A stretch of 64,000 nt of DNA from Nannocystis bainbridge (GCF_028368995.1 NZ_JAQNDL010000001.1:96001-160000), one strand, 5' to 3'. Positions 1,006-56,631 are shown, numbered from the stretch's first letter. Translations and numbers: made by a program. The notes: generated by a model not told the origin, from the sequence alone.

Positions 1006-1740
1006 CTACTGGTTGTCTTTGGAGACAGGTACGTCGGGACATGTCGCATCGGACCTGTCCCCAGAGTCAGTGTAGTCGTCGGCGCCGAGGTAGCCGGCGC
1101 GGGCCAGCGCCTCGCGCGTGACCGCCGGCGCGGCCGCGCGGGCCGGCTCGCCGCCGGCGCCGAGCAGGCGGGCGACGTAGCGGGCCAGCAGGTCGACCTC
1201 GAGGTTGACCGCGTCGCCGACCTGCCGCTCGCCGAGGGTGGTCTCTTTGAGCGTGTGCGGGATCAGCCCGACGGCGAACCCGCGGGCGTCGACCGCGTTG
1301 ACGGTGAGGCTGACGCCGTCGACGCACGCGCTGCCCTTGACGGCGACGTAGCGCGCCAGTTCGTCCGGGACGTCGAACCAAACCTCGAGAGCGTCGCCGC
1401 GGACGGTCCGGCTGCGCACGCGCGCGAGGCCATCGACGTGGCCCGACACGAGGTGCCCGCCGAGCGCGTCGCCGAGGCGCAGCGCCGGCTCGATGTGCAC
1501 CCGGGTGCCCGGCCGCAGGTCGCCGAGGGTCGTCACCGCGAGGGTCTCGAACGCCGCCTCGACCGTGAAGTCGCGCGCGGTGGCGGCGGTGACGGTGAGG
1601 CAAACGCCGGAGATCGCGACGCTGGCGCCGAGGCTGCGATCGCTCTCGGACAGCGGATAGGCGATCACGAAGGTGCGTCGCTGCGCGCCGGGGATCACGC
1701 GCTCGACCGTGCCGACGCCGCGCACGAGGCCGGTGAACAT
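1006..1740 (-). CDS. ribE: riboflavin synthase alpha chain
   Basis: MFTGLV start, GVCLTV, GGHLVSGHVDG, KGSACVDGVSLTVN, VNLEVDLLARY. Confidence 0.96.
   Translation of the reverse strand: MFTGLVRGVGTVERVIPGAQRRTFVIAYPLSESDRSLGASVAISGVCLTVTAATARDFTVEAAFETLAVTTLGDLRPGTRVHIEPALRLGDALGGHLVSGHVDGLARVRSRTVRGDALEVWFDVPDELARYVAVKGSACVDGVSLTVNAVDARGFAVGLIPHTLKETTLGERQVGDAVNLEVDLLARYVARLLGAGGEPARAAAPAVTREALARAGYLGADDYTDSGDRSDATCPDVPVSKDNQ
1009..1070. repeat. 14-bp-period palindromic decamer array in the ribE 3' end
   Basis: Cores CAGG/CATG/CCTG at 1026, 1040, 1054 (weak at 1012): AGACAGGTAC, GGACATGTCG, GGACCTGTCC. Confidence 0.7.
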
Positions 1741-1835
1741 GCGGGGGTTATGGCACAGATCACCGGCCGGTGCGACGGCCCGCGGCGCCCGCCGCAGGCA
1801 TCAGCACGCGCGTCTCGTGAGGTCCGCCGCGGGCG

Positions 1836-3071
1836 TCAACTCTCGCGTGTCGCGGGCTCCGTGGCGGGCTCCACGGGCGGGCCGAGAATGGTGAGGCCAT
1901 CGACCCCGACCTCGGTGCGCAGCAGCGGCCGGAGCCGCGTGGCGTCGGCGACCGCGGCGACCTTGAGCCCGGCCGCCGCGGGCTTGCCGTCGCCGAGGAT
2001 CACCGGCGCATGGAACCAGTAGAACCGCTGCCACGCGCCCGCGGCGACGAAGCTGGCGATCATCCGCCCGCCGCCCTCGACGAGCAGCGAGCGCAGCGGC
2101 AGCTGGCCCAGCGCCTGCAACGCCCCCGCGACATCGACGCGACCCTCGGCGTCTCCCGTCAGCTCGATGCGCCGCAGGCCCAGGTCGTCGATCGATCGCT
2201 GCGCCGCCGTCGGCGCGCGGCTGGTGTGCAGCACCACCGTGCCCGGCCGCAGCAGCGTCGGTCGCTGCGCGGCCCCGGCCACCCGCAGGCCGCTGTCGAA
2301 GATCACCGGCAGCGGATCGACGCCGGTGACCATGCGCACCGACAGCGCGGGATCGTCGCGGAGCACCGTGTCGGCGCCGACGGCGATCGCGTGGTGACGG
2401 GCGCGCAACCAGTGCCCGAGCCGCCGCGCCGCCTCGCCGGTGATCCACTTGCTGTCCCCCGAGCCAGCCGCGATCTGGCCGTCGAGCGACGACGCGATCT
2501 TCAGGGTCACGAACGGCAGCCGCGTCGCTTCGTGGTGCAGGTAGTGCTCGTGCGCCGACGCGCACGCATGGGCGAGCACGCCGGCGCGCACGCGGACGCC
2601 GGCGGCGCGCAGCAGGTCGATGCCGCGGCCGCTGGCGTGGGCCGCCGGATCGAGCGCGCCCACCACGACCTCGCCGACGCCAGCGGCGATCAGCGCCCCG
2701 GTGCACGGCGGGGTGCGACCGAAGTGCGAGCAGGGCTCGAGCGTGACGTAGACGGTGGCGCCGCGCGCGGCCGCTCCGGCCTGCGCGAGCGCGGAGACCT
2801 CGGCGTGCGGGCCTCCGGTGGGCGCGCTGCGACCGGCGCCGACCACCCGATCGCCCTGCACGACGATCGCGCCGACGCACGGGTTGGGATAGGTCGCGCC
2901 GGTGCCCGAGCGGGCCAACGCCACGGCCACGCCCATCCACCGCACGTCACGCGCCTCGGCTGATTCGCCCGCGACCGGCGTGCTGGTCAGCGCCGCCGCG
3001 ATCGCGGCCGGCCCGGCGTCGGCGACCCCGTCGGCGCCGCCGAGCAGGTCGGCCGGCTCCGGCGAGATCAC
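1836..3071 (-). CDS. ribD: bifunctional diaminohydroxyphosphoribosylaminopyrimidine deaminase/reductase
   Basis: PNPCVG, HAEV, TLEPCSHFGRTPPC, SLDG, KWITG, LLVEGGG motifs. Confidence 0.96.
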   Translation of the reverse strand: MISPEPADLLGGADGVADAGPAAIAAALTSTPVAGESAEARDVRWMGVAVALARSGTGATYPNPCVGAIVVQGDRVVGAGRSAPTGGPHAEVSALAQAGAAARGATVYVTLEPCSHFGRTPPCTGALIAAGVGEVVVGALDPAAHASGRGIDLLRAAGVRVRAGVLAHACASAHEHYLHHEATRLPFVTLKIASSLDGQIAAGSGDSKWITGEAARRLGHWLRARHHAIAVGADTVLRDDPALSVRMVTGVDPLPVIFDSGLRVAGAAQRPTLLRPGTVVLHTSRAPTAAQRSIDDLGLRRIELTGDAEGRVDVAGALQALGQLPLRSLLVEGGGRMIASFVAAGAWQRFYWFHAPVILGDGKPAAAGLKVAAVADATRLRPLLRTEVGVDGLTILGPPVEPATEPATRES

Positions 3072-3670: not shown

Positions 3671-3674
3671 ATCT

Positions 3675-4115: not shown

Positions 4116-4122
4116 GGCTCGT

Positions 4123-9928: not shown

Positions 9929-10061
9929 CTCCCGGCCCTTGGTCGCCTCTGAGCCCACTGCGCGCCTCGGAGGCGCCGACGCGAGCCCCCGCCTCGACGC
10001 GCCCGGCGACGTCTCGCCGCTCGCCGAGCCGCGGCTCGAGTTCTCCGCCGGTCGCTCGCGC

Positions 10062-13000
10062 GTGCTCGCGGTGTCGTGCCTGGTCGGCGCCTGTCTGATC
10101 GCACTTGTCCCTCGGGACAGCCAGGCCCGCACCCGCAGCGCCGCGCTCGGCGTCGTCGCCCCGCCCGCGCCGCCGCTGCTGCCGAGCCTGCGCGCCGCCC
10201 CGGGCCTGCGCGCCAGCGACCTGGTCGCCGGCCTCGGCGCGCCGCTGCTGCTCGCACCGCCGCCGCGGACCACCCCGCGCCGCCTGCCGAGCGAGTCGAC
10301 CTCCGAAGCGCCGACGAGCGAGCCGCCGACTGAACCTGCTCCGGAGGACATGTCCGGAACGACAGGGTCTTCGGGACCTGCCCCGACGGGCAGCCCGCTG
10401 ACGCGGCCGGCGCCCAACCTGGCGCCGCCACCCGAGAGCGAAGAGGGCGACGAGACCGAGGCCGCCGCGCCGGCCCCTGCCCCGGCCGCCGTCGCCGAGG
10501 GTCAGCTGTTCGCGCCGATCGCCACCACCGAGCCGCAGGCCGAGCCCGAGCCGCAGGAGGAGACGCCGCGCCTCCTCAAGGGCAAGAGCGTCCCGCCGTT
10601 CTGGATCGATCGCACCTTCACGACCCACCGGACGCGCGCGCTGACGCTGCCGCCGCTGTTCTTCCACCGCAACGGCACCGCCAACCACCCGGAGAAGCTG
10701 TTCCACTTCAACCTGTCCCTCACGACAGGTTGGTACAGCGAGCGCACGGCGAAGCGCAGGTGGTTGTCGCCGGCGATCCTGTTCTTCGGCTCGTTCAGCG
10801 AGCGCACCACCGGCTGGGGCTCGGTCGCGCTGCTGATGGGCTACAAGCGGGTCGGCGAGCAGTACAGCTTCGGCCAGTTCCCGTTCGTCTGGCGGTGGGG
10901 CAACAAGTCGGTCAAGAACCTGGTCGTCGTCCCGTTCCACTACCACCAGAAGACGCCCGACAGCTTGCGCGGCTTCTCGGCGGTGCTGTTCTGGTACGGT
11001 CACAAGAACACCACCGACAAGGACCCGCTCAACGACCTGCGCTACTTCGTCGGCTTCCCGCTGTTCTACCGCGTGACCCGCGGGCCGAGCACCGTCAACG
11101 TCGGCGTGCCGCTGTACCTCGGCGGTCAGAACAAGGCCCGCGGGGTCCAGTGGCACACGGTGCTGCCGTTCGTGCACTGGCAGTCGAGCGAGTACGGCAA
11201 CCGCAAGGATCTGTGGACGCTGCTGTACGTGCAGCGCAGCGACAAGGCCCGCAGCCAGCGCTCGTGGGCCGTGCCGCCGCTGCTCACGTTCTCGCGCCAG
11301 ACCCCGACGCACAAGCTGTTCTCGGCCACCCCGCTGGTGTGGCGCGCCGAGAACCGCGACCGCGGCAGCGTCGCCTGGTCGGTGTTCCCGTGGGTCAGCT
11401 ACCGCGACCCCGAGCAGCGCAACCGGGTGCTGTTCCCGCTGTTCTGGCAGTTCGGCGACGTCAAGTCCGGCGTCACCAGCAGCGTGTTCGTGCCCCTCGT
11501 GTACGCGCGCAAGAGCCCGCAGGACACGCGGGTCTACACGCTGCTCGGCGGCGGCCGCTCGGGCAAGGACGGCCGCTGGGGCTTCGGCATCACCCCGCTC
11601 CTGACCTTCGTCCGCAACGAGCCGGGCGGCAAGAGCTTCCAGGTCGTCACGCCGCTGTTCGGCCACTCGCACGACCCGAGCGCCTACGGCGGCAAGGGCT
11701 CGCGCACGGTCTCGGCCGCGGTGCTCGGCTACTACAGCCGCCGCGGCGAGCGCTGGGACGCCGGCTTCGCCCCGCTGGCGTTCGTCGGCCGCGACGGCAC
11801 CCGCTCGTACCAGACCATCACCCCGCTGTTCTGGCACCGCCGCGACACCGACCCGCAGAACCCGAGCGACCTGTGGGTGCTCGGCCCGGCCTACGCCAAG
11901 AAGGTCAAGTCGGGCGGCCACGGCGGCCTCGCCCCGCTGGTGTTCGCCGGCCGCGACGACAAGTTCCGCTACGGCATCGTCCCGCCGCTGCTGTTCGGCC
12001 ACGTCCACGACGTCGAGGCCCAGCGCTCGCGCACGGTGTCGCTGGTGTTCGCGCGCGACAAGGGCCCCGACCACCGCACGCTCGGCGTCCTCAACCTGTT
12101 CTGGGACGTGAAGCGCCCGGGCGGCGAGCGCCACACCGCCCTGTTCCCGCTGTTCTACCGCCGCCACAGCGAGGGCAAGACGCTGACCCTCACCCCGCTG
12201 GGCGGCGCCTACAGCACGCCCGAGCAGCGCACCTGGTCCGCCGCCGCGATCCTCTACGGCTTCCGCGGGATCAAGGATCCGGACCGCCGCGGCTTCGGCC
12301 TCATCCCGCTGGTCTTCTACGACCGCCGCAAGGTCGACGGCGGGGTCGCCAGCAACGTCGTCGTCGCGCCGCTGTTCGCCCGCCACCGCGCGCCCAGCGA
12401 AGACCTCGACATGTGGTCGCCGCTGGTCTGGCGCACGGTCACCCGCGGCGAGAAGCCGCGCAAGAACCTCGCGGTCATCCCGTTCTACTTCCGTCAGCGC
12501 CAGCCCGACGGCATCGACGTCGACGCCGGCCTGATCCTCCCGTTCTTCTACAGCCGCGACAAGGTCCGGCGCACGCACACGCTGATCGCCGGCCCGGCGT
12601 TCCACCGCCTCACCCGCACCTCGCTGAACGCCGGCGTGGTGCCCGTCTACTGGTGGCACGACTCGGCGGAGAAGCGGCGCCTGATCTCGCTGCCGCTCAT
12701 TTTCCACCAGGCGGACAAGAACAAGCTCGAGCACACGACCATCGCCGTGCCGCTGTGGTTCGACCGCCGCCGCGCCAACGGTCGCCGCTCGTGGGTCGCC
12801 TTCCCGTTCGTCGTCGGCGTCAAGGGTCAGTTCAACTTCACCCGCTTCAGCCTGACGCCGCCGATCTTCTACGACATCTTCCGCCTCCACAAGAACTACC
12901 GCTTCACCGGCGTGGTCCCGTTCGCGTTCCGCTACCAGAAGTGTGGCTTCCGCGAGGAGGACGACGATCGTTGCCGCTACACGCTGTGGGGCTCGTGGCC

Positions 13001-13976
13001 GCTGTTCCTCTACGGTAAGGACGGCAAGGGCCGCACCAGCCACGGCGCGCTGATGCTCTACTACTTCGACAAGGACCCGGGCGGCCGCCGGTTCCTCACC
13101 CTGCTGGGCGGCGCCAACGTGCGCCCCGGCGAGCGCCTCACCTGGTACGCGCTCAACTTCGGCCACACCACCACGCGGAAGTTCAAGACCACCGTCTTCT
13201 TCCCGCTGTTCTTCCGCAAGGCCTACCGGACGCAGGACCGCAGCACCACCGTCGTGCTGCCGCCGCTGTTCGTCGGCGCCCACCGCGAAGACTACCGGTG
13301 GTTCCAGGCCGGCCTGATGGTGTGGAACTTCCGCCGGCCGCACAAGGTCACGACCGTGGTCGCGCCGCCGATCTTCTTCACCGCGCACAGCTACGCCGAG
13401 CGGCGCATGACGTGGCTGCTCCCGCTGTTCCTGCGCGACAACAACTGGGCCAAGGACAGCTCGTTCACCAGCGTCTTCCCGGCCCTGGTGTTCCAGCGCC
13501 GCCGCGGCCAGGACAACGACTGGGTCCAGTTCCCGCTGATCTGGCACATCGAGCGCGGCGAGAGCTCCGGCACCTTCGGCGCCTTCATGTGGTGGGACAT
13601 CCGCCGCAAGGGCCGCGTCACCCAGGTCGTCCCGGCCCTGTGGGCCCGCCAGCGCGGCCGCGGCCGCGACGTCCAGGTGCTCGGCCCCGGCCTCGGCTGG
13701 TGGTGGCGCACCGAGCAGAAGCTCAGCGACGCCGAGGGCCAGGACATCGGCGTCAAGAAGGGCCTCCACTGGCGCGCCCTGTTCGGCCTGGTCGGCGGCG
13801 GCAACGACGGCGCCCAGCGCTACTTCTCGCTGTTCGGCGGCCGGATCCCGCTGCGCCCCAAGGCCGTGTGGGAGCCCCGTCGCAAGCGCCTCAAGGCCCA
13901 GCAGCAGGTCGCCCCCAAGGCCCTGCCCGCCGCCGCGCCCGCCCCGGCCGCGACTCCGGTCGAGAAGAAGCCCTGA
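10062..13976 (+). CDS. large exported aromatic/basic 'PLF' repeat protein of unknown function (ORF track start 9918; GTG 10062 preferred)
   Basis: Strong GC3 codon bias; signal-peptide-like VLAVSCLVGACLIALVPRDSQA; Pro/Glu/Thr linker; then dozens of P(L/F)(F/L)(F/Y/W) units. Confidence 0.8.
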   Translation: MLAVSCLVGACLIALVPRDSQARTRSAALGVVAPPAPPLLPSLRAAPGLRASDLVAGLGAPLLLAPPPRTTPRRLPSESTSEAPTSEPPTEPAPEDMSGTTGSSGPAPTGSPLTRPAPNLAPPPESEEGDETEAAAPAPAPAAVAEGQLFAPIATTEPQAEPEPQEETPRLLKGKSVPPFWIDRTFTTHRTRALTLPPLFFHRNGTANHPEKLFHFNLSLTTGWYSERTAKRRWLSPAILFFGSFSERTTGWGSVALLMGYKRVGEQYSFGQFPFVWRWGNKSVKNLVVVPFHYHQKTPDSLRGFSAVLFWYGHKNTTDKDPLNDLRYFVGFPLFYRVTRGPSTVNVGVPLYLGGQNKARGVQWHTVLPFVHWQSSEYGNRKDLWTLLYVQRSDKARSQRSWAVPPLLTFSRQTPTHKLFSATPLVWRAENRDRGSVAWSVFPWVSYRDPEQRNRVLFPLFWQFGDVKSGVTSSVFVPLVYARKSPQDTRVYTLLGGGRSGKDGRWGFGITPLLTFVRNEPGGKSFQVVTPLFGHSHDPSAYGGKGSRTVSAAVLGYYSRRGERWDAGFAPLAFVGRDGTRSYQTITPLFWHRRDTDPQNPSDLWVLGPAYAKKVKSGGHGGLAPLVFAGRDDKFRYGIVPPLLFGHVHDVEAQRSRTVSLVFARDKGPDHRTLGVLNLFWDVKRPGGERHTALFPLFYRRHSEGKTLTLTPLGGAYSTPEQRTWSAAAILYGFRGIKDPDRRGFGLIPLVFYDRRKVDGGVASNVVVAPLFARHRAPSEDLDMWSPLVWRTVTRGEKPRKNLAVIPFYFRQRQPDGIDVDAGLILPFFYSRDKVRRTHTLIAGPAFHRLTRTSLNAGVVPVYWWHDSAEKRRLISLPLIFHQADKNKLEHTTIAVPLWFDRRRANGRRSWVAFPFVVGVKGQFNFTRFSLTPPIFYDIFRLHKNYRFTGVVPFAFRYQKCGFREEDDDRCRYTLWGSWPLFLYGKDGKGRTSHGALMLYYFDKDPGGRRFLTLLGGANVRPGERLTWYALNFGHTTTRKFKTTVFFPLFFRKAYRTQDRSTTVVLPPLFVGAHREDYRWFQAGLMVWNFRRPHKVTTVVAPPIFFTAHSYAERRMTWLLPLFLRDNNWAKDSSFTSVFPALVFQRRRGQDNDWVQFPLIWHIERGESSGTFGAFMWWDIRRKGRVTQVVPALWARQRGRGRDVQVLGPGLGWWWRTEQKLSDAEGQDIGVKKGLHWRALFGLVGGGNDGAQRYFSLFGGRIPLRPKAVWEPRRKRLKAQQQVAPKALPAAAPAPAATPVEKKP
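10087..10124. repeat. 14-bp-period decamer array in a signal-peptide coding region
   Basis: Cores at 10090 (CCTG), 10104 (CTTG), 10118 (CAGC). Confidence 0.5.
10332..10397. repeat. 14-bp-period decamer array in a linker coding region
   Basis: Cores at 10335, 10349 (GGACATGTCC), 10363, 10377, 10391. Confidence 0.75.
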
Positions 13977-13993
13977 GCCCCGGCTGACCTCGC

Positions 13994-14059
13994 GGGCATG
14001 TCCGCTCGGACATGCCCGTTCGGGCCTGTCCTTCAGCGCATGTCCTCGGGGACATGCTT
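13994..14059. repeat. 14-bp-period palindromic decamer array (5 units), intergenic
   Basis: GGGCATGTCC, GGACATGCCC, GGGCCTGTCC, GCGCATGTCC, GGACATGCTT; cores at 13997, 14011, 14025, 14039, 14053. Confidence 0.9.
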
Positions 14060-14313
14060 GTCCGCGCGAACGAGCGGATGGGGCGCGGGCCGTCCGGGCT
14101 GACTCGCCGTGGCGCGCGCCCTGCGTGGCAGCCGGCACCAGGCGCGTCCTGTGTGGCAGCCGGCACCGGGCCCGCCACGAGCGCTCGCTGCGAGCGCCAC
14201 CATCTCCCCACGTGCCGCTCCGAGCGCTCGCCGCTCCGCATCGCGCCCTGCCCTGCCCGCCTCTCCCCCGCGGAGCGCTCGCTCCCCGGCGAGGTGACCG
14301 CGAGAGCGGCCGC

Positions 14314-14355
14314 TTAAAAGCCCGAGGGCCCCGGAGCGACGCTCCGGAGCCCTCG
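14314..14355 (-). terminator. intrinsic terminator after lipoprotein paralogue 1
   Basis: Hairpin CGAGGGC-CCGGAGC/GCTCCGG-GCCCTCG followed by TTTT on the minus strand. Confidence 0.65.
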
Positions 14356-14378
14356 ACGTGCGCGCCGCGAGGCGCGGC

Positions 14379-16139
<1,761 letters not shown>

Positions 16140-16274
16140 GTTCCTGGGGTTCTAAGGTCGTGGCCGTCCGCACGCGCGCCTGGCCGATCGAACGCCAGCG
16201 TTTCCCATCCGCTCCCGCCTTTCAAGGGCGTAAGCCCGCAAGCGGCGACGTCTCCCTGACGACACATCTCACGG

Positions 16275-16319
16275 TTAAACGGCGACGCGGGCCGCCCCCG
16301 ATGGTGCGGCCCGCGTCGC
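16275..16319 (-). terminator. intrinsic terminator after paralogue 2
   Basis: 14-bp stem GCGACGCGGGCCGC/GCGGCCCGCGTCGC, short T run on the minus strand. Confidence 0.6.
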
Positions 16320-16331
16320 ACGCCACATGGC

Positions 16332-18083: not shown

Positions 18084-18171
18084 GGTCGTGTCCTACTCGC
18101 AAAGAGTACGGCCGTCCTCGAGTGCGGGACGGCGCCGCCACGATTTCCCATCTTTCGCGGCTTATCAAGCC
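18084..18171 (-). promoter_or_regulatory. conserved upstream region of paralogue 2 (TTGATA...GATGGGAAATCGTGGCG)
   Basis: Near-identical to 20164-20251; similarity ends just beyond TTGATA. Confidence 0.6.
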
Positions 18172-18328
18172 GTCCCCAGCGCCGACCCGCTCGAGGCCCG
18201 ATCCTGCGCCAAGCTGGCGAAGACGCGCCCTGACAGGGCGCACGCCCGCTCCAACCATGGGTGATGATTGGACGTCGCGATTGTTCGACTCGCCTCGACA
18301 TCACACGGACGAAGGTCCGCAGCGGACA

Positions 18329-18360
18329 CAACAAAGGCGCGCACGTCGCCGTGCGCGCCC
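18329..18360 (-). terminator. intrinsic terminator after paralogue 3
   Basis: Stem GGCGCGCACG/CGTGCGCGCC with TTTGTTGT tail on the minus strand. Confidence 0.7.
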
Positions 18361-18384
18361 TTCGAGCTCAAGCCTGCGAGGCGA

Positions 18385-20163
<1,779 letters not shown>

Positions 20164-20251
20164 GGTCGTGTCCTACTCGCAGAGAGTACGGCCGTCCTCG
20201 AATGCGTGACGGTGCCGCCACGATTTCCCATCTTTCACGGCTTATCAAGCC
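20164..20251 (-). promoter_or_regulatory. conserved upstream region of paralogue 3
   Basis: Near-identical to 18084-18171. Confidence 0.6.
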
Positions 20252-20413
20252 CGGGCACCTGCCGACTGGTCCGCATCGGCAGCGAGCGACCCGCGGCCGC
20301 AAAACCGGCATGGACCAGCGTTCCGGGGCTCAAATCCGGCGAAGACGCATCATGACGGAGACGCAAGCTCGGCGGCCGTCGGTCCGCTCCGCCCGCGAAT
20401 GTCACAGTCGCGC

Positions 20414-20448
20414 AAAACAAAGAGGCGCGCCCGTCGCCGGGCGCGCCT
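20414..20448 (-). terminator. intrinsic terminator after paralogue 4
   Basis: Stem AGGCGCGCCCG/CGGGCGCGCCT with CTTTGTTTT tail on the minus strand. Confidence 0.75.
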
Positions 20449-20472
20449 GTCGATCTCACGCCTGGACAGCGA

Positions 20473-22248: not shown

Positions 22249-22541
22249 GTCAGTAAATCCTGATGGGGTGCGCCCGTGAGCGCGGACTTGCGTGTCGCAG
22301 CGGCGTCCGCGCGACACGAGCTGAATCAACCGCGCCACGATTTCGGACTTCGCCGATCCGATCAAGCGTCGGCCGACGAGGTGTTCGCAGACTGAGCCGT
22401 AGACGACCTGCGGCTAATTCGCGGCTTTACGGGCGCCTCCGGCGCGGCGCCGTCCGTTTGCTCGACGACGACTGTGATTTACGGATCGCGGCTTCCTCAC
22501 GCGCCGCCACCGCCTGCGTGCATGCCCACGGCTGAACTTTG

Positions 22542-22579
22542 CGCCCTGTACTTCAAGACCTGTCCTAAGGGACCTGTCC
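22542..22579. repeat. 14-bp-period decamer array at the 3' end of the ComEA-like gene
   Basis: CCTG cores at 22545, 22559, 22573 (AGACCTGTCC, GGACCTGTCC). Confidence 0.7.
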
Positions 22580-23077
22580 TGAAGGCTCGACGCGAGCTCG
22601 CGGGCGCACGGCGGTCAGCCGCGCCGGCCCGATCCCACGCACGCGCTGCAGTTCGTCGACGGTCGCGTACGGTCTTCCTTCGACGATCCGGCGCGCGAGC
22701 TCGGGGCCGATACCAGGCAAACTCTCGAGCTCGCTGGCAGCGGCGCGATTGAGATCGACGGGGATCGACAGCGCCTCGAGATCGTCGCCTCGCATGCGGC
22801 CCCAGCCGTCGCCGCCGGACTGCGGCGAGGCGACGGCGCACAGCGACGCGGTGGTCACGGCGTCACCGTGGGCCAGCGCGGCGGCAGGCGAGCCCGCGCC
22901 GCACAGCGCCGCGAGGTCGCGCGGCGCCTCGTCGTCGCAGCGCAGCGCTCCGTCGACCTCGACCGCGAAATCGCAGGCCGTGACCACGAGCAGCTCCGGC
23001 GCGGCCGGCCGCAACCACGCCGCCAGCACCACGACGAGCGCGGCGAGCAACGCGACTGTCGCCCCGACGCGGACCAC
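22565..23077 (-). CDS. ComEA-like helix-hairpin-helix DNA-binding protein with N-terminal membrane anchor
   Basis: VDLNRAAASELESLPGIGPELARRIV...YATVDELQRVRGIG. Confidence 0.85.
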   Translation of the reverse strand: MVRVGATVALLAALVVVLAAWLRPAAPELLVVTACDFAVEVDGALRCDDEAPRDLAALCGAGSPAAALAHGDAVTTASLCAVASPQSGGDGWGRMRGDDLEALSIPVDLNRAAASELESLPGIGPELARRIVEGRPYATVDELQRVRGIGPARLTAVRPRARVEPSGQVP

Positions 23078-24695: not shown

Positions 24696-24792
24696 CCGCA
24701 CCCCTCCGGGATACCGCAGCCGCAGCCGCCCGTCGACGCCCGTCGACGCCCGTCGGCGAGCGCGGGCGCACGCGCGCAGCCCCGCGCCGGAG

Positions 24793-24828
24793 CGGCCTGT
24801 CCGTTCGGACATGTCCCTCACGACATGT

Positions 24829-24844
<16 letters not shown>
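24793..24844. repeat. 14-bp-period decamer array at the pdxJ 3' end
   Basis: Cores at 24796, 24810 (GGACATGTCC), 24824 (CGACATGTCT), 24838. Confidence 0.85.
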
Positions 24845-25563
<719 letters not shown>

Positions 25564-25684
25564 GCCGCGCGATAGCACCGGCGCGCGCGCTTGTCACCTC
25601 CCCTGTCGCCGGCGCCCGCCGACCTCGGCGCCGGCCCGACGCGGGCCCGTTGAAGCCGCGCGGCCGGGGCACTAGTCTCGCGCT

Positions 25685-27034
25685 GTGCCGTCCGCGTCCG
25701 CGCCCGCAGTCGCCGTCGTCGGCGCGGGCTTCTGCGGCGCCGCCCTCGCCTGGCACCTGGCCCGCGCCGGCGGCCCGCGGGTGACCCTGATCGACGGCCG
25801 CGGCGAGTTCGGTCCCGGCCTGGCCTATCGGACAGGCGATCCGCGCCACCTCCTCAACACCCCGGCCGGGCGGATGAGCGCGCTGGCGGACGACCCCGAG
25901 CATTTCGTCCGCTGGGCCCGGACCGGCGACCATGCAGTCGGCGGCGGCAGCTTCTTGCCGCGCGGCGTCTACGGCGACTACCTGCGCCACCTGGTGGCCG
26001 AGGCGAACGTCACCTGTCTCAAGGGCCATGTCGTGGAAGCCCGCCCGCCCGCCCCGGGCAGGTCCGCCGTGCTGGCGCTGAGCGACGGCACCGAGCTGGC
26101 CGCCGACCACGTCGTGCTCGCCGTCGGCAACCTGCCGCCGCGCCTGCCCGCCGGGCTGGGGCCGCAAGTCCGCGCCGATCCGCGCTACGTCCACGACCCG
26201 TGGACGGCGCCCGGGCCCGCGATCGCGCCGGACGCCACCGTGCTGGTCTGCGGGACAGGTCTGTCGGCGCTCGACCTCGCGCTCGGGCTGGGCGGCGCCG
26301 GCCACCGCGGCCCGATCCACCTGCTGTCGCGCCACGGCCTGTTGCCGCAGGCCCATCGCGCCCCCTCGCGGCCGCCCGAGCCGCATCCGCCCGCGTTCAC
26401 CGACTGGCCAGCCACCGCGCGCGGGAGCCTGCACGCGCTGCGAGCAGCCGCCCGCCTCGAGGCGACCCGCGACGGCGACTGGCGCGACGTGCTGGCCGAC
26501 CTGCGACCGGTGACGCAGGCGATCTGGCGCCGCTGGCCCGCGGACGAGCGCGACCGGTTCGTGCGCCACCTGCGGGTGTTCTGGGAGGCCCACCGCCACC
26601 GCGCGGCCCCGGCGACCGCGGCCGCGATCGCCGAGCTGCGCGCGGCGGGCCGCCTACAGGTCCACGCCGGGCGCGTCGTGGACATGTCCCTCGGGACAGA
26701 CGCGATCACGCTGGCGATCCGCCCGCGCGGCCGGACCGACCGCGTCCACCTGCGCGTCGCGGCGCTGCTCAACGCCACCGGCCCGTCGCCCGACCCGCGC
26801 GACGGCGCCGACCCGTTGCTGCGCGACCTGATCGCCCGCGGCCTGCTGGTGCCCGAGCCGCTCGGCGCGGCGATCACCGACGACGGCGCGGTGATCGACG
26901 CCCACGGCCGCGCCTCGAGCTGGCTGCACGCGCTCGGCGGCCTGCGCCGGCCGCAGCTGTGGGAGACGACGGCCGTGCTCGAGCTGGCGCCCCAGTGTCA
27001 GGCGCTGGCCGAGCGGCTGCGGGGCCGGCAGTGA
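25685..27034 (+). CDS. FAD/NAD(P)-binding protein (YdhS-like)
   Basis: VVGAGFCG, GPGLAY...HLLNTPAGRMS, GTGLSALD, SRHGLLP, LWETTAV. Confidence 0.85.
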   Translation: MPSASAPAVAVVGAGFCGAALAWHLARAGGPRVTLIDGRGEFGPGLAYRTGDPRHLLNTPAGRMSALADDPEHFVRWARTGDHAVGGGSFLPRGVYGDYLRHLVAEANVTCLKGHVVEARPPAPGRSAVLALSDGTELAADHVVLAVGNLPPRLPAGLGPQVRADPRYVHDPWTAPGPAIAPDATVLVCGTGLSALDLALGLGGAGHRGPIHLLSRHGLLPQAHRAPSRPPEPHPPAFTDWPATARGSLHALRAAARLEATRDGDWRDVLADLRPVTQAIWRRWPADERDRFVRHLRVFWEAHRHRAAPATAAAIAELRAAGRLQVHAGRVVDMSLGTDAITLAIRPRGRTDRVHLRVAALLNATGPSPDPRDGADPLLRDLIARGLLVPEPLGAAITDDGAVIDAHGRASSWLHALGGLRRPQLWETTAVLELAPQCQALAERLRGRQ

Positions 27035-27083
27035 CGTGTCCCTCGGGGCATGTCCTCGACGACATGCCCCTTCAGACAGCCTC
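27032..27083. repeat. 14-bp-period decamer array filling a convergent intergenic gap
   Basis: Cores at 27035, 27049 (GGGCATGTCC), 27063 (CGACATGCCC), 27077. Confidence 0.85.
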
Positions 27084-29384: not shown

Positions 29385-29465
29385 CGGCCCGCTCGACCGG
29401 AGCCCGCCGCTTCGGCCCGCGTCTGGCAGCCGGTCGGCCTGTATCGACCTGCCGGCCGTACTTCG

Positions 29466-29545
29466 AGACATGTTCTATCGAACATGTCTCGAAGAGCATG
29501 CGCATGAAGACATGCTCTCATGCGCATGTCCCGGGGGCCATGCTC
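29466..29545. repeat. 14-bp-period palindromic decamer array (6 units), intergenic between convergent genes
   Basis: CATG at 29469, 29483, 29497, 29511, 29525, 29539; the first two units form the larger palindrome CTTCGAGACATGTTC...GAACATGTCTCGAAG. Confidence 0.9.
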
Positions 29546-29589
29546 CTGTCACGCGCGTCGCGCCTCCGGAGCGCGCGCCGGCCCGTCGC

Positions 29590-34408: not shown

Positions 34409-34488
34409 TCACCTGCTCTCACGGACATGCCCACATCGACATGTCACTTCGGACATGCTCGCCGGAGCATGTCCCCGAGGACAGATCC
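34409..34488. repeat. 14-bp-period decamer array (6 units), intergenic between convergent genes
   Basis: Cores at 34412, 34426, 34440, 34454, 34468, 34482 (GGACATGCCC, CGACATGTCA, GGACATGCTC, GAGCATGTCC, GGACAGATCC). Confidence 0.9.
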
Positions 34489-34490
34489 GA

Positions 34491-35846
<1,356 letters not shown>

Positions 35847-35856
35847 GCGCACCTGT

Positions 35857-46994: not shown

Positions 46995-48848
46995 TCACTC
47001 GCCGCGCCGGAGGCCGTCGACGGGCCGCAGCGCCGCCGCGGCCCGCGCGGGGAGCACGCTGGCCAGCCCTACGAGCACGAGCGCGGCGGCAGCGACGAGC
47101 GCGACCTCCCACGGATCGACGCGCAGCGGCAACGCCTCGAGGGTGAAGGCGTCGCTGCGCAAGGGGATGCCGCGCTCGCTGAACCACGTGCACAGGGCCA
47201 GACCCGCGGCGATCCCACCGACACAACCGACGCCTCCGACGATTATTCCTTCGAAGGCGAAGATTCCGGCGATCAGACGATCGCGGGCCCCCATGGCCTT
47301 CAAGATGGCGATCTCGGCCGACCGCTCCATGACGCTCATCATGTTGGTGGCGAGGATCCCGAAGGCCGCGACGAGGATCACGAAGAGCAGCGCGACGAAC
47401 ATCGCGACCTTCTCGAGGAACATCGCCGAGAACAGGCCGCGGTGGATCTGGCGCCAGTCCTCGACCACGAGCTCGGGGCCGGCGACGGCGATCACGCCGG
47501 CCTTGGCCGCGGCGAGCGCGTCGGGATCGGCGAGGCGAACGGCGATCGAGGTCACCGCGCCCGGGGCCCGCAGGAACGCCTGCGCGTCGGTCAACGGGAC
47601 GTAGGCGTAGTCACGGTCGTCGTCATAGACGCCGGTGGCGTAGACGCCGGCGACGCGGGCCTGCAGGACGCCGGGCACCAGCCCGGCGGGGGTCATGCGG
47701 CCCTCGGGGGTGATGAGTTGCACCGGATCGCCGGGACCGACGCTGAGCTCGGCCGCCAGCTCGATGCCGAGGAGCACGGGCACGGTCCGCGGCTCGTCCG
47801 CCGCCCCGTCGCTCGTGGGCTCGGCGGCCGGAGGCGCCGGGAGCCCGTCGGCGAGCGACGGCTCCGCGTCGGTCGGCGAGGTGTCGACCGGGCGTGCGGG
47901 CGGGATCTTGCCCTCGGCGCGCAGCCGCGGGATCTCCTGCTCCGGGTCCTCCCAGCCGCCGCCGTCGTCCTCTTCGGCCGCGGGCCCCGGCGCGACCACC
48001 GGGTCGCGTGCCGGTGGGATCTTGCCCGCCGCGCGCAGCTGCGGGATCTCCTGCGCCGGATCCTCCCAGCCGCCCGAGTCCTCGACTTCGGCCTCGACCG
48101 CCTCCGGGTGCGCGAGCGCGTCGTCCGGCGCCGGCTCGACCGGTCCTTCGGGACCTGTCCCATCGCCCATGTCCGAAGGGTCATCCTCGGGCATGGCGTC
48201 GAGGACCGGGAACGGGCGCCATGGCAGCTGCGAAGGATCGAGGAAGGCGGCGTAGTCGCCCTCGATGACCTCGTCGGGCAGGCCCGAGGCCGTGGCGTGC
48301 AGGACCGGGTCGACGCCGACCAGGTTGACCCCGGCGCGACCGAAGCCGCTGCGGATCATGATCGGCCCGGCGAGCTCGGGGCTGACGCCGACGACGTCCG
48401 GAACCCCCTGCACGCGAGCCACCAGCGGACCGGGCGTGACGATCTCCGCGCCGGGCGGCGGCGCGATCCGGAGGTGCGCGCGGTGGCCGAGCAAGCGGGT
48501 CTGCAGATCGCCCTCGAGACCGCCCAGCAGACTGAGGACCAGCACCAGCGCGGCGCAGCCCTGGGCCACCGAGTAACCAGTGATCGCAACCAGCAGGGTG
48601 AAGCCGCGGACGGTGGCGGCGAAGCTGAACACGAGCAGGCCGATCGCCGCGGCGAAGCTGCCGACCACGTAGGCGAGATCGCCGTTCGACAGCTCGCCGG
48701 CCTCGCTGGGAGGTTGTCCGAAAGACCAGATGACTGCGCCTGCCCCGGCGGCCACCGGGACGAGCGCCAGGATGGCGATGGTTCGGGTCCAGCGTGGCGC
48801 CCGGCGCGTCCGCAGGTGCCGCCAGGCGACCCGCAGCGACAGGTTCAT
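46995..48848 (-). CDS. LolC/E-family lipoprotein-releasing permease with large periplasmic insertion
   Basis: Start MNLSLRVAWRHL (ATG 48848); LVLSLLGGLE, DWRQIHRGLFSAMFLEK, EIAILKAMGA, RPVDGLR. Confidence 0.9.
   Translation of the reverse strand: MNLSLRVAWRHLRTRRAPRWTRTIAILALVPVAAGAGAVIWSFGQPPSEAGELSNGDLAYVVGSFAAAIGLLVFSFAATVRGFTLLVAITGYSVAQGCAALVLVLSLLGGLEGDLQTRLLGHRAHLRIAPPPGAEIVTPGPLVARVQGVPDVVGVSPELAGPIMIRSGFGRAGVNLVGVDPVLHATASGLPDEVIEGDYAAFLDPSQLPWRPFPVLDAMPEDDPSDMGDGTGPEGPVEPAPDDALAHPEAVEAEVEDSGGWEDPAQEIPQLRAAGKIPPARDPVVAPGPAAEEDDGGGWEDPEQEIPRLRAEGKIPPARPVDTSPTDAEPSLADGLPAPPAAEPTSDGAADEPRTVPVLLGIELAAELSVGPGDPVQLITPEGRMTPAGLVPGVLQARVAGVYATGVYDDDRDYAYVPLTDAQAFLRAPGAVTSIAVRLADPDALAAAKAGVIAVAGPELVVEDWRQIHRGLFSAMFLEKVAMFVALLFVILVAAFGILATNMMSVMERSAEIAILKAMGARDRLIAGIFAFEGIIVGGVGCVGGIAAGLALCTWFSERGIPLRSDAFTLEALPLRVDPWEVALVAAAALVLVGLASVLPARAAAALRPVDGLRRGE
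48137..48188. repeat. 14-bp-period decamer array in the permease insertion
   Basis: Cores at 48140, 48154 (GGACCTGTCC), 48168, 48182. Confidence 0.7.
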
Positions 48849-50884
48849 CGCTCCGCCTGTCGCAGAGCGTCGACCGGGCGCATGCGCGAGGCGATCCGCG
48901 CCGGGTAGAGGCTCGACAGCCAGACGATGACGAGCGACGACACGCCGACCAGCGCGACCTCGAAGCCGTCGATGGCGACCGGCAACTGCTCGAAGCTCTG
49001 CAGCGAGCCGCTGAGCGGCAGGCCGAAGCGATCGAGCAGGCCGCACAAGCCGATGCCGGTGACGATGCCGAGGACACCGCCGAGGATGCCGAGGCACAGG
49101 CCCTCGGAGATGAAGATGCGCTGGATGAGGCTGTCGGTGCAGCCCATCGTCTTGAGGATCGCGATCTCCTTCGACTTCTCGATCACGCTCATCAAGTTGG
49201 AGCCGAGGATGCCGAACGAGGCGACCAGGATCACGCACAGCAGGGCCACGAACACCGCGATCTTCTCGAGCGCCATCGCCGAGAACAGGCTGCGGTTCAG
49301 CTCCTGCCAGTCCTGGACGACGAGGTCGTCGCGGCCGGCGGCGTCGACCGCGTCTTGCACGGCCTGGCGGCGGACGTCGAGCTGCTCGATGTCGTCGACC
49401 TTGACCTCGAGGCCGGTGACGCGGTCGCCGGCGCGCAGGAACGCCTGGGCCACCGGCAGCGAGGCGTACACCAGCCAGCGGTCGTAGTCGTAGTGGTCGG
49501 CGTCGAACACCCCGGCGATCCGCACGGCCATGACTCCGGGGATCCGGCCGGCCGGGGTCATGCGACCGATCGGGGTGATCAGCTGGACCTGATCGCCGGT
49601 GCGCGCCGCCAGCTCCTTGGCCTTCTCGCTGCCGATCAGGAGGCCGTCGACCAGCGCGTCGCGCGAGATCGGCGCCTCGACCTCGGGCTCGACCTCGGGC
49701 TCGGGCTGGCTCGCGCCAGGCGCGGCCGCGGGCGGCAGCTGGCCCTTCGCGCGCAGCTTGCCGATCTCGACCTCCGGATCTTCCCAGCCCTCGTCCGCCT
49801 CGCCGAGCGGGCCGAACGGGCTGCGCGGCATGGTCGGGATCGCCGCGGCCGCCGAGGTCGGCACGCCGATCTTCTTGCTCGTCGCTGGCGGGCTCGGCTC
49901 CGGCTTGGCCGGCGGCAGCGTGCCCGTCTTGCGCAGCGCGGGGATCTCGATCTCGGGGTCCTCCCAGCCGTCGTCGGGGTCGTCGTCGACGGTGCTCGGG
50001 ATGTCCTCGGGGACATGTCCTTCGGCACCTGTCGCATGGGGCAGGGCCGTGGCGCCCTGCCCTTCCTTCGCCTCGCCCTCGTCGGGCGGCACCGGCGCGG
50101 GCGGCTCGACCGGCGTGATCTCGAAGCCGAACTCCGACTCCGGGATCTTCTCCGGCTGCGAGAGGAACGCGTAGTCGCCCTCGCGCATGATGTCGGGCAG
50201 GTTCGACACGCTGCGGTGCAGCTCGGGGTCGATGCCGAGGAGGATGCCGCCCTGGCGCTGGAAGCCGCTGCGGACCATGACTTCGCCCTGCAGGTACGGG
50301 CTGGCGCCGAGGATCCCCGGCTTGTCGGCGATCGCCAGCGCGAGGTCTCGGTAGTCGGCGAACGGCCGCCCGTCGGCCCCGGCGACGCGGATGTGGGCGC
50401 GCTGGCCGAGGATCTTGTCGCGCAGCTCGAGCTCGAGCCCGGTCATCAGGCTGAGCACCACGACCAGGGCCATGCAGCCGAGCATGACGCTGACGGTGAT
50501 GACCGTGGCGAGCAGGGTGAAGATCAGCGACAGCACGGCGCCGAGCAGCAGGCCGGCGCCGAGCAACAGGCTGATCCCGCCGAGCACCCCGAAGTAGGCC
50601 TGCGCCGGCGGCGGGAGGTCGGCGGTCGGATCGAAGCCGAGGCCGACGAGGCTCGAGTCGAGGGCGACGCGCTCGGGCAGGCCGGACTCGAGCGGCGAGA
50701 AGCCGTAGAGGGCGTAGAGCACGAAGCCGCCGCCGACCACGAGCAGATAGAGCGCGAGGCCGACGGCCGGCCAGGCCCACGACGGCGGGCGATCGCCGGC
50801 TCGCAGGTGCCGCCACGCGATCTGCCAGTGGAGGCTCGGGGGAGCCTCCGGCCGGGATGACGCGGCGGGACGAGCGTGGCTCAC
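48845..50884 (-). CDS. LolC/E-family lipoprotein-releasing permease with large periplasmic insertion
   Basis: GTG 50884 overlaps the prfB stop; IAWRHLR, VVLSLMTGLE, DWQELNRSLFSAMALEK, EIAILKTMG. Confidence 0.9.
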   Translation of the reverse strand: MSHARPAASSRPEAPPSLHWQIAWRHLRAGDRPPSWAWPAVGLALYLLVVGGGFVLYALYGFSPLESGLPERVALDSSLVGLGFDPTADLPPPAQAYFGVLGGISLLLGAGLLLGAVLSLIFTLLATVITVSVMLGCMALVVVLSLMTGLELELRDKILGQRAHIRVAGADGRPFADYRDLALAIADKPGILGASPYLQGEVMVRSGFQRQGGILLGIDPELHRSVSNLPDIMREGDYAFLSQPEKIPESEFGFEITPVEPPAPVPPDEGEAKEGQGATALPHATGAEGHVPEDIPSTVDDDPDDGWEDPEIEIPALRKTGTLPPAKPEPSPPATSKKIGVPTSAAAAIPTMPRSPFGPLGEADEGWEDPEVEIGKLRAKGQLPPAAAPGASQPEPEVEPEVEAPISRDALVDGLLIGSEKAKELAARTGDQVQLITPIGRMTPAGRIPGVMAVRIAGVFDADHYDYDRWLVYASLPVAQAFLRAGDRVTGLEVKVDDIEQLDVRRQAVQDAVDAAGRDDLVVQDWQELNRSLFSAMALEKIAVFVALLCVILVASFGILGSNLMSVIEKSKEIAILKTMGCTDSLIQRIFISEGLCLGILGGVLGIVTGIGLCGLLDRFGLPLSGSLQSFEQLPVAIDGFEVALVGVSSLVIVWLSSLYPARIASRMRPVDALRQAER
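49997..50048. repeat. 14-bp-period decamer array in the permease insertion
   Basis: Cores at 50000, 50014 (GGACATGTCC), 50028, 50042. Confidence 0.75.
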
Positions 50885-53884: not shown

Positions 53885-54005
53885 CGCCGCCAGCGTGACC
53901 CGCCCGCCCGCGCTTTGCAAGCGAGTGCCGCGACCGGGCGAACTCAGCGGTCATGCCGGCCGCCCTCCCCTGCCCCGCAGCCGCGATGCGAGACGAGGAC
54001 CCGCG

Positions 54006-54998: not shown

Positions 54999-55041
54999 GC
55001 GGCGCGGACCATACCCGGACCACGCCGCGCGGGGGGCGCGC

Positions 55042-56631
55042 TCAGGTGAACGCCCACGCCAGGGCGACGGCGACCAGCAGCGCGACGATCACCAGCCAGA
55101 AGCTCGTGTCGTTGCGCCGCGCGAGCATCTCCGGCGGGCGGGCGGTGAGCGAGGTGCCGGCCGTCGGCGCGTGGCTCTCGATGGCCTTCGGCGCCCTCGT
55201 CTCGAGGAGCGGCGCGGGTGACACCGGCGCCATCGGCGACAGCGTCGGCGCCGCGACCGGAGCCACGGGCGCCTCGACTTCACGCTCGCGCACGTCGGAG
55301 CGAGCCGCGGCCGGGTTGGTGTCGCCGCCGCTGGGCTCGACGAGGATGTCGGGCCGCGAGGGCGAGGGCGAACCGCGGCGGACGATGCTGTCCTCGGTGA
55401 GGACGTGGACGCGGCGCAGGCCGCTGTTCGAGCGCCCCGACGGATCTTGCGGGTTGGCGAAGCCACCGGCGCTGGCCGCCGCGAACGAGCCGGCGGGGAT
55501 CGAGCTCGAGCGCAGCGCCTGCACGGTGTTGGGCCGGATCGAGCCCTCGCCGAACAGCAGGTCTTCGAGGCCCATCACCGGCGGCTCGACCGGCGCCGAG
55601 GCGGTGACCTTGGGTGCCTCTCTGACCGGAAGGCCAGGTACCGAAGGACCTGTTGGAACGGACAGGGTCTCGAGGACAGGTGGCACCGCGGCCGAGGACG
55701 AGGCGGTCGGCGGGATCGCCAGCGACGGCGCCGACACCTCGCCGGCGGACTTGGCGACGCGCGGCGGCGGTGGCGGCGGCGAGGCCGGCGTGAGGTCGAG
55801 GATCGGCTCGGGCGCGGCCTCGACGGCGCCGGCGAGCGACTCGAGGCGACGCACCAGCTCGGCGCCGTCCCGCGGGCGCGCGGCGGGGTCGCTGTGCAGG
55901 CTGGCGCCGATCAGCGCCCACAGCCCGGCTTGCAGCCCCGGCGGTTCGGCGGCGCGCAGAGCCGCTGCGCCGCGCAGACCGGTGGCGAACTCGGCGAGCG
56001 CGACGCCCCACGCGTAGGTGTCGGAGGTCGGGGTGAAGCCGCCGCCGCCGAGCAGCTCGGGCGCGAGGATCGCTTGATCGACGCTGCTCCACCGCCGCTC
56101 GAGCTCGGCGCGGGCGCATAGCGGAGCGAAGCCGTGCTGGAACGCAGCCGGACCGCCCGGTCCGACGAACACGGCCTCGCCGGCGAGCATGCCGTGGACG
56201 CGGCCACGACCGTGCAAGGTCGCCAGGGCGCGCGCGAGCTGCCGCGCGAGCCGCTGCAGCTCGTTGGCGAGGTCGGACGAGCGCGGGCCGTCGTCCATGT
56301 CGCGCAACGCGAAGGCGCCCTGCAGCGGGTCGTAACAGACGACCACGCGCTCGCCGTCCTGACCCACGAACACCTGAGGCACGAGCGCCGAGTCCTGCAG
56401 CTCGCCGAGCTCGCCGAGCTCGCGCACGAACGCGGCCCGGGCCTCGGGCGTGGGCAACAGCGAGGCGTCGAGGACACAGGCGCGCGCAGGCTCGCCGGTG
56501 TGGGTGTCGAGGACCGCGAGCGTGGGGCCGAACAGCTGCACTCCCGTGTTGGCCGGCTCTTCGCGCATCAGCTCGAAGCGGCCGCACAGCGTGGTGTGCT
56601 CCTCGTGCGAAGTGCCGGCGCTCAACTCCAT
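55042..56631 (-). CDS. Ser/Thr kinase-like pseudokinase with Pro-rich linker and C-terminal TM helix
   Basis: C-lobe motifs LAPEL, SDTYAWG, DPAARP retained; HRD, DFG and VAIK replaced. Confidence 0.75.
   Translation of the reverse strand: MELSAGTSHEEHTTLCGRFELMREEPANTGVQLFGPTLAVLDTHTGEPARACVLDASLLPTPEARAAFVRELGELGELQDSALVPQVFVGQDGERVVVCYDPLQGAFALRDMDDGPRSSDLANELQRLARQLARALATLHGRGRVHGMLAGEAVFVGPGGPAAFQHGFAPLCARAELERRWSSVDQAILAPELLGGGGFTPTSDTYAWGVALAEFATGLRGAAALRAAEPPGLQAGLWALIGASLHSDPAARPRDGAELVRRLESLAGAVEAAPEPILDLTPASPPPPPPRVAKSAGEVSAPSLAIPPTASSSAAVPPVLETLSVPTGPSVPGLPVREAPKVTASAPVEPPVMGLEDLLFGEGSIRPNTVQALRSSSIPAGSFAAASAGGFANPQDPSGRSNSGLRRVHVLTEDSIVRRGSPSPSRPDILVEPSGGDTNPAAARSDVREREVEAPVAPVAAPTLSPMAPVSPAPLLETRAPKAIESHAPTAGTSLTARPPEMLARRNDTSFWLVIVALLVAVALAWAFT
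55632..55683. repeat. 14-bp-period decamer array in the pseudokinase linker
   Basis: Cores at 55635, 55649, 55663, 55677. Confidence 0.7.

Follow-up and report, generated by a model that had tools for sequence, protein, structure and literature searches.

The window analysed here, 64,000 nt of the Nannocystis bainbridge genome (contig C1, positions 96001-160000), carries dispersed arrays of a short palindromic unit that repeats at an exact 14-bp period. The myxobacterial genus Nannocystis, whose genomes are very large, is mined for natural products. Our genome-wide analysis reveals that the arrays belong to a real and abundant repeat family, essentially specific to Nannocystis and apparently undescribed. 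The evidence leans, if modestly, towards a family resembling the repetitive extragenic palindromes (REPs) and bacterial interspersed mosaic elements (BIMEs) without a REP-associated tyrosine transposase (RAYT), whose sequence a specific reader would maintain and whose hairpins would form barriers at the 3′ ends of transcripts.

The periodicity is apparent from the spacing of the CATG core alone. In the window, CATG pairs occur 12, 8 and 9 times at 14, 28 and 42 bp, respectively, as compared with 0-1 times at 13, 15, 29, 41 and 43 bp and three times at 27 bp, and the three main loci consist of CATG-centred units, one per 14 bp. Across the genome under study (G000; 11.05 Mb, 5 contigs, 71.5% GC), CATG pairs number 3,736 at 14 bp, 2,073 at 28 bp, 1,586 at 42 bp, 751 at 56 bp and 383 at 70 bp, whereas the adjacent spacings of 13 and 15 bp have 72 and 262 pairs, respectively, and background counts are ~250-420 at multiples of 3 and mostly ~60-210 at the remaining spacings. 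When matches to a position weight matrix (PWM) of the 14-bp units were chained, 2,565 arrays of at least two units (20 at most) were obtained, against 5 in the reversed genome that served as control. Under a stricter rule of at least two strong units, 2,030 arrays with 7,046 units are retained, covering 98.6 kb or 0.89% of the genome. Strong neighbouring units lie 14 bp apart in 3,743 cases, 13 bp apart in 24 and 15 bp apart in 28. The genic class of the lenient arrays takes in chains in which one strong unit is joined by chance to two weak ones; strong-unit counts were used for the reversed-genome, intragenic and 2,030-array figures. It is vanishingly improbable that the 14-bp pattern reflects chance, codon periodicity or simple replication slippage. 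Part of the loci first listed in the window are weak and lie in coding DNA, one of them in conserved coding sequence, as would suit chance; however, the 14-bp count is ~50 times the 13-bp count, 14 is no multiple of 3, the reversed genome yields almost no arrays, and adjacent units carry differing spacers, contrary to slippage. The genome-wide spacing counts and the reversed-genome control rule this explanation out.

The genome-wide PWM profile defines a symmetric unit consensus, nnGGACATGTCCnn, with an A/T-enriched spacer. The original prediction had described a palindromic decamer with differing 4-nt spacers and had expected spacing peaks at 14, 28 and 42 bp; the decamer is real and the peaks are present both in the window and genome-wide, but the basic and commoner arrangement is an inverted repeat that spans the spacer, rather than the decamer. 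This inverted repeat, TGTCC-N4-GGACA (5-4-5, 14 nt), has 1,987 copies in the genome, whereas each other spacing from 0 to 17 nt has 0-19 (16 for N3 and 5 for N5); directly abutted GGACA-TGTCC has 956 copies. The wider consensus around the module is R-C-M-TGTCC-N4-GGACA-K-G-Y. The CA and TG flanks let modules abut without a linker, recreating CATG, from which both the GGACATGTCC decamers and the exact period of 14 bp result. Units inside one array behave nearly as independent draws from the consensus, with an identity only ~0.2 of 10 positions above the null, in agreement with the earlier judgement that slippage did not produce them; certain long arrays hold block duplications of 3-5 units. Among arrays of at least three units, direct similarity between units peaks genome-wide at lag 3 (z 14.4), corresponding to 42 bp or four helical turns, with z values of 9.1, 7.7, 6.4 and 1.5 at lags 1, 2, 4 and 5, respectively. 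Three-unit block duplications account for the lag-3 similarity in part only. Mirror symmetry of whole arrays is small and inconsistent (z -3.8 to 5.9).

The arrays are concentrated at the 3′ ends of genes, as judged with a rough codon-usage gene caller (7,970 genes, 84% coding). Arrays of at least three units are convergent in 554 cases, tandem in 436, divergent in 52 and inside called genes in 228, and the 2,030 strict arrays divide into 744, 715, 129 and 442 in the same order. Viewed from the intergenic regions, an array is found in 686 of 1,429 convergent (48%), 687 of 4,167 tandem (16.5%) and 142 of 1,442 divergent regions (9.8%). The upstream stop codon is a median of 17 bp away and the next start 172 bp. 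In convergent regions, 1,095 of 2,236 gene 3′ ends have an array within 120 nt; a canonical-looking terminator is found at 244 of the same 2,236 ends. Distances to the stop codon have two peaks, one of 113 arrays at +6, where the sequence is mostly nCTGA-CC, and one of 23 arrays at -8, with CATGA in 23/23; the first module overlaps the stop codon and sometimes supplies the TGA itself. Some long arrays occupy the whole space between the two stop codons of convergent genes. The chromosome-wide extent proposed at the outset is borne out: each of the 43 full 250-kb bins holds 27-87 arrays, irrespective of the GC-skew arm, so that nothing ties the arrays to origin or terminus. GC skew switches sign on contig C3 near 1.5 Mb and at the end of C1, which marks candidate origin/terminus positions; array density there is unremarkable.

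The repeat family is essentially confined to Nannocystis. The exact two-unit pattern has 20 copies in G000 and occurs in 8 of the 10 other genus genomes and in none of 30 genomes of other genera. In a collection of ~185,000 species, the same pattern was found in 78 stretches, comprising 64 titled Nannocystis, 9 in a Nannocystaceae metagenome-assembled genome (MAG), 2 in a Myxococcales MAG and 3 strays. The basic module is present in 11 of 11 genus genomes at 114-2,090 copies, in two sister genera at 87 and 161 copies, and in the other 28 genomes at 8 copies or fewer, while controls reached 0-10. Two abutting modules are found in the genus only, in G000 and nine of ten sister genomes.

When the 64 kb is followed through five sister genomes by synteny, four intergenic regions (window positions 13977, 24702, 29385 and 34296) keep their arrays in place, with differing unit numbers and spacers. 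Gains and losses between species are also seen: the array at 27035 is present in G000 only, and strong units at 22249 are present only in the sister genomes G005 and G007. These two genomes were compared over 471 kb (94.8% identical), giving 178 array comparisons, of which 64 were unanchorable, 74 were of unequal length and 40 were of the same length (118 units) and used. The length difference is a multiple of 14 in only 6 of the 74 unequal pairs. Divergence is 2.5-5% at arm/core positions 3, 6, 7, 9, 11 and 12, 7.6% at position 8, 8.5% at position 4, 12-14% at positions 5 and 10, and 15-22% in the spacer, as compared with 6.1% at third codon positions and 6.8% in ordinary aligned non-coding DNA. 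Because the profile was drawn from strong units, arm divergence may appear up to twofold too low; spacers diverge 4-6-fold more than arms, beyond the reach of this effect, indicating that the arms are constrained or homogenized. Together with the unit consensus, this substantiates the early claim that period and dyad are conserved and spacers are not. Pairing of non-orthologous units as a source of the spacer divergence is ruled out, since no more than 3 of 118 units differ at position 3, where just ~70% of units carry G.

Arrays are also predicted to fold stably as RNA. Those in the window fold with z scores of -3.3 to -8.1 on both strands, and four-unit arrays genome-wide have a mean fold energy of -25.2 kcal/mol, as compared with -13.2 for shuffles and -22.4 for chimeras of random units. 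Weak covariation is found in a single stem-loop register, in which position 10 of one unit faces position 5 of the next (Watson-Crick pairs 50.1% versus 46.2% expected); the within-unit pair gave 45.2% versus 48.9% expected, and the i/i+2 control 43.1% versus 43.8%. Where the direction of transcription is known, sense RNA is more stable by a mean of 1.1 kcal/mol (319 versus 274 arrays, p=0.005), with a control difference of -0.15, and the sense strand is slightly enriched in G and T at positions 5 and 10. Rfam 15 gave no match at gathering score in the 64-kb window.

In addition to the gene-end copies, modules are established inside genes. Among the 970 arrays with at least three strong units, 81 sit at least 150 nt inside open reading frames (ORFs) with coding signal on both sides, and 705 of the 1,987 exact modules lie within genes, where they split by reading phase into 409, 234 and 62, the Cys-Pro reading being the rarest. 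Two intragenic arrays that were aligned occupy the same site in 6/6 species, with all indels multiples of 3, cores kept and spacers varying, and the motif is kept while the encoded peptide varies. The four exact intragenic modules of the window are kept in every anchorable sister genome. One of the two aligned arrays is located in a helicase:
G000 C1:1406228-1406283, intragenic array in a loop of a putative Lhr-like helicase.
Of 13 orthologues outside the genus, nine have 1-3 residues in this loop, where G000 has ~25; the remaining four carry unrelated loop inserts of 8-26 residues. A paralogue (~50% identical) has a 5-unit array at the equivalent loop (G000 C1:2590516-2590585), and the two loop arrays may have arisen by independent insertion into a tolerant loop, or by conversion.

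Taken together, the folding, the weak covariation, the strict geometry and the conservation in coding DNA point towards a specific reader that recognizes sequence as well as geometry and may act either on double-stranded DNA or on a strand in its folded form. Such a trans-acting reader, as the conservation patterns suggest, would hold the arms and the 4+0 spacing constant; it would act as RAYT does for classical REPs, or as gyrase and IHF do for BIMEs, yet would not be a RAYT. Judging from their position and predicted folding, gene-end arrays would be transcribed into the 3′ untranslated region, and either strand would form very stable hairpins. As barriers at the 3′ end, these hairpins would shield the mRNA from 3′ exonucleases or aid termination, as reported for REPs.

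Several observations weigh against such a REP/BIME-like family of 3′-end barriers. PF01797 (RAYT) has matches in 0 of 11 genus genomes versus 6 of 14 control genomes, although genome completeness of 64-91% leaves this absence unproven, and neither REP tag marks the 4,060 array ends: GTAG lies within 12 nt of 0.8% of them versus 2.6% at 60-74 nt away, and CGTC is found at 5.6% versus 10.3%. The unit itself has 14 nt, as compared with 20-40 nt in REPs. Real arrays fold just slightly better than the random-unit chimeras, loop and linker lengths are strict, and the divergence profile uses 40 of the 178 array comparisons. No T/U-tract follows the arrays (T frequency 0.07-0.21 over the following 60 nt), and a sense-strand tetraloop preference was not found (YNMG 149 versus 134 and GNRA 38 versus 26, both not significant). 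Covariation between module flanks, weak at k=1, vanishes or turns negative at k=2-4, on which ground long extended stems are rejected as the main constraint. Canonical terminators with hairpin and T-tract are no rarer with an array (13.4%) than without (8.5%), a comparison confounded by units with T-rich spacers, which may score as terminators. Finally, the motif is conserved within coding sequence, where a 3′-end function is moot.

The arrays may instead be double-stranded platforms for a cooperative dimeric protein, as the original prediction proposed, the module being an operator-like site and RNA folding incidental, which we regard as possible but on the unlikely side. The 14-bp step would set dimers ~120 degrees apart, three units making four helical turns. 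Once coated, the arrays would flag where transcription units end, for example by acting as roadblocks or insulators or by loading a topoisomerase or nucleoid protein. Consistent with such a platform, conservation runs by sequence identity and not by compensatory change, and spacing is strict (N4 1,987 versus N3 16 and N5 5; 14 bp 3,743 versus 52 at 13/15) though spacers change fastest. The unit profile is strand-symmetric with no sense-specific loop choice, the spacer centre is A/T-enriched in a genome of 71.5% GC, the motif is kept in coding sequence of six species with a varying peptide, and direct unit similarity is highest at lag 3. However, the lag-3 signal comes partly from three-unit block duplications, DNA binding does not require the median of 17 bp from the stop or the stop overlap, and a pairing signal, small but significant, and a sense-strand stability bias are present. 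Thousands of sites would, moreover, demand a very abundant protein, and no candidate was found, the neighbours of the 20-unit array described below being YbjQ-like and pyridoxal phosphate (PLP)-dependent enzyme genes. Rather unlikely, in our view, is a system of boundary elements in which an abundant dimeric protein polymerizes at the rigid 14-bp step over ~2,000 gene ends as well as certain sites within genes. Were this true, the arrays would block read-through, insulate supercoiling domains or recruit topoisomerase, nucleotide-level selection would be strong enough to write the motif into coding sequence, and the whole would constitute a new nucleoid-organizing system with no described myxobacterial counterpart.

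The module might instead be kept by drive without any function at the locus, either as a motif in natural transformation, similar to the DNA uptake sequence (DUS), or as a selfish mini-element, still spreading, for which 3′ ends and protein loops are the main tolerated sites. We consider this distinctly unlikely. The strong, genus-specific over-representation and the even spread along the chromosome would fit it, as would the intragenic exact modules with their phase bias avoiding the Cys-Pro reading, the in-frame array insert in the helicase loop with the paralogue array at the equivalent loop, and the gain and loss of arrays between species; uptake sequences of Neisseria are, likewise, often inverted pairs at terminators. 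On the other hand, uptake sequences are not known in phased tandem arrays, and sequence-specific DNA uptake is not known from Nannocystis. Orthologous arrays are positionally stable across six species and so show no trace of recent copy-paste; apart from the consensus, units have little in common, and no transposase candidate was found with PF01797 in the 11 genus genomes.

At the level of single loci, the core coordinates of the original prediction were exact at all listed positions. Its list of loci stands for five strong intergenic arrays, two shorter or degenerate ones and three single modules in coding DNA, whereas about seven weak entries are probably chance. The features of the window are as follows, with predicted RNA folds given as + / - strand.
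13992..14061, 5-unit array (cores 13997, 14011, 14025, 14039 and 14053; unit scores 12.4, 15.7, 9.7, 11.7 and 12.3) in a convergent intergenic region, 16 nt past the stop of the + gene 9939-13976; fold -43.5 / -43.3 kcal/mol, z -5.0 / -5.6; 4, 4 and 5 units in the orthologues of G005, G007 and G001, none in G003.
29464..29547, 6-unit array (unit scores 9.5-15.1) in the convergent intergenic region 29385-29589; fold -54.1 / -49.6 kcal/mol, z -8.1 / -6.4; 5, 4, 4 and 2 units in G005, G010, G007 and G003, none in G001, where the intergenic region has 33 bp.
34421..34490, array of 4 strong units and 1 weak unit, convergent intergenic, abutting the stop of the - gene 34491-35852; fold -29.8 / -36.9 kcal/mol, z -3.7 / -3.3; 2-5 units with differing spacers at the same site in 5/5 sister genomes.
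24791..24832, 3-unit array (scores 5.7, 18.0 and 13.8), tandem intergenic, overlapping the stop of the - gene 24829-25578; 2-3 units in 5/5 sister genomes.
27030..27071, 3-unit array (1 weak), almost filling the 49-bp convergent intergenic region 27035-27083; found in G000 only, the sister intergenic regions having 154-432 bp.
22540..22581, degenerate CCTG-core array (cores 22545, 22559 and 22573; unit scores 1.4, 9.8 and 9.7), with CATG units in the orthologues of G005 and G007.
1035..1062, 2-unit array (cores 1040 and 1054; scores 12.9 and 8.8) overlapping the 3′ end of ORF 1006-1740 (-).
10106..10119, single exact TGTCC-N4-GGACA inside gene 9939-13976 (+); 10/10 arm bases kept in 5/5 sister genomes.
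26685..26698, single exact module (first listed as 26683/26697) inside gene 25685-27034 (+), which has no orthologue beyond the genus at E<=1e-40; 10, 10, 10 and 9 of 10 arm bases in the four anchorable sisters.
50002..50015, single exact module (within the listed 50000-50042) inside gene 48845-50884 (-); 10/10 arm bases in 5/5 sisters.
60481..60494, single exact module (listed as 60479/60493) inside gene 59798-60820 (-); 10/10 arm bases in 5/5 sisters.
10335-10391, a single strong unit within a conserved coding stretch (E-D-M-S), which reads as chance.
48140-48182, two moderate units.
55635-55677, 3098/3112, 3907/3921, 26013/26027, 37744/37758 and 38097/38111, weak scores, probably chance.

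The convergent region of the 5-unit array also contains, at ~14335-14378 (-), a canonical GC-rich hairpin with a T-tract behind the - gene ending at 14379, conserved in G005, G007, G001 and G003, showing that ordinary intrinsic terminators coexist with arrays in one convergent intergenic region. At the orthologue of 27035-27083, the genomes G005, G010 and G007 carry a tandem repeat of a CCTGTCC-CTCC-GGACAGC hairpin and a ~16-nt linker, with a period of ~33-37 bp and 6-12 copies; a 17-mer of this repeat has 2 exact copies in the whole G000 genome, and its use of the same stem suggests species-specific sub-families. Elsewhere in the window, 14379-22248 (-) holds four tandem paralogous genes of ~590 aa each with internal 96- and 201-bp repeats (TRF 15473-15829 and 17430-17793), and ORF 29590-30540 (-) contains a 15-bp tandem repeat of 7.3 copies (30338-30444) and an adjoining 12-bp repeat (30441-30480).

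Beyond the window, the longest array of the genome is located on another contig:
G000 C3:1237911-1238190, 20-unit array between a YbjQ-like gene, whose stop lies ~20 nt before it, and a PLP-dependent enzyme gene downstream.
This array is more A/T-rich and is well kept in its GACATG half only. Its flanking YbjQ-like and PLP-enzyme genes, considered as candidate binders, have no DNA-binding domain.

The arrays are probably the commonest 3′-end structure in the genome, given their presence at about half of the convergent gene ends and the much smaller number of canonical-looking terminators there. Those inside ORFs could be mistaken for gene boundaries or assembly problems. A 14-nt phased module that lacks RAYT and tags widens the known range of REP-like elements, and the family poses the question of what keeps arms and spacing fixed when spacers vary so freely.

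Our comparison with known systems reveals partial likenesses to several. DUS in Neisseria and the uptake signal sequences (USS) of Pasteurellaceae have ~2,000 evenly spread copies, also in coding DNA and often as inverted pairs after genes; they are non-palindromic and depend on a known uptake receptor. The module resembles them in being lineage-specific, strongly over-represented and also present in coding DNA, but it is palindromic and forms phased tandem arrays, an arrangement in which, to our knowledge, neither DUS nor USS is found. Ribbon-helix-helix dimers bind cooperatively to the palindromic met-boxes of MetJ and to the non-palindromic heptads of omega protein, in both cases over 2-10 abutting boxes of exact period. 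Such operators share with the Nannocystis arrays the short abutting boxes and the exact period, whereas they are found at few promoters and the arrays at ~2,000 gene ends. As in Rho-independent terminators, a stable predicted hairpin lies close behind the stop codon, but it has no U-tract and its sequence is common to thousands of sites. The analogy to matS and SlmA/Noc sites drawn by the original prediction did not hold up: arrays are neither confined to nor excluded from any chromosomal macrodomain, and their placement follows gene 3′ ends instead. The decamer's likeness to a p53 half-site gained no support. The P53 domain has no match in G000, but it has none in the 14 control genomes either, so that this negative carries little weight; in the open-access literature, the decamer appears in eukaryotic contexts, mostly p53, among the matches listed.

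In-frame repeats are known from Rickettsia, where palindromic elements (RPEs) lie in frame within ORFs of proteins that probably still work, according to PMC3733652. Similarly, the Nannocystis intragenic arrays are in frame, with indels in multiples of 3, and are kept in six species. RPEs are single elements of about 100-150 bp; distinct from these, the Nannocystis repeats are phased 14-bp units in a large free-living genome.

The closest likeness is to REPs and BIMEs. In PMC3733652 and PMC2817692, REPs are described downstream of ORFs, between unidirectional and convergent genes, with termini that supply stop codons, and also inside ORFs, many of them repair or helicase genes; they are reported to affect termination and mRNA stability, and BIMEs are REPs at regular spacing that bind gyrase and IHF. 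Like the REPs and BIMEs of enterobacteria, Pseudomonas, Xanthomonas and Stenotrophomonas, the Nannocystis elements are short, high-copy, imperfect and lineage-specific palindromes in regular clusters, mostly 3′ of ORFs, where they may supply the stop, and partly inside ORFs, including a helicase gene. By comparison with BIMEs, the modules abut without linkers in exact 14-bp phase, and the orientation that alternates in BIMEs is undefinable here because the consensus is symmetric. One REP superfamily, tagged with CGTC, apparently has no dedicated transposase, according to the abstract of PMC3733652; the Nannocystis family appears alike in this respect and is unlike in that CGTC is not enriched at its array ends. 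The main text of PMC3733652 contains none of the terms 'myxo', 'Sorangium', 'Haliangium' and 'deltaproteobacteria', and no description of a Nannocystis or other myxobacterial element of this kind was found in open-access literature text. These comparisons favour the alternative that the original prediction had named, an unrecognised REP-like element. With its exact phase, its conserved in-frame copies and its untagged 14-nt module without RAYT, the family is most aptly classed as a new REP/BIME-like variant, outside the REP/BIME family proper.

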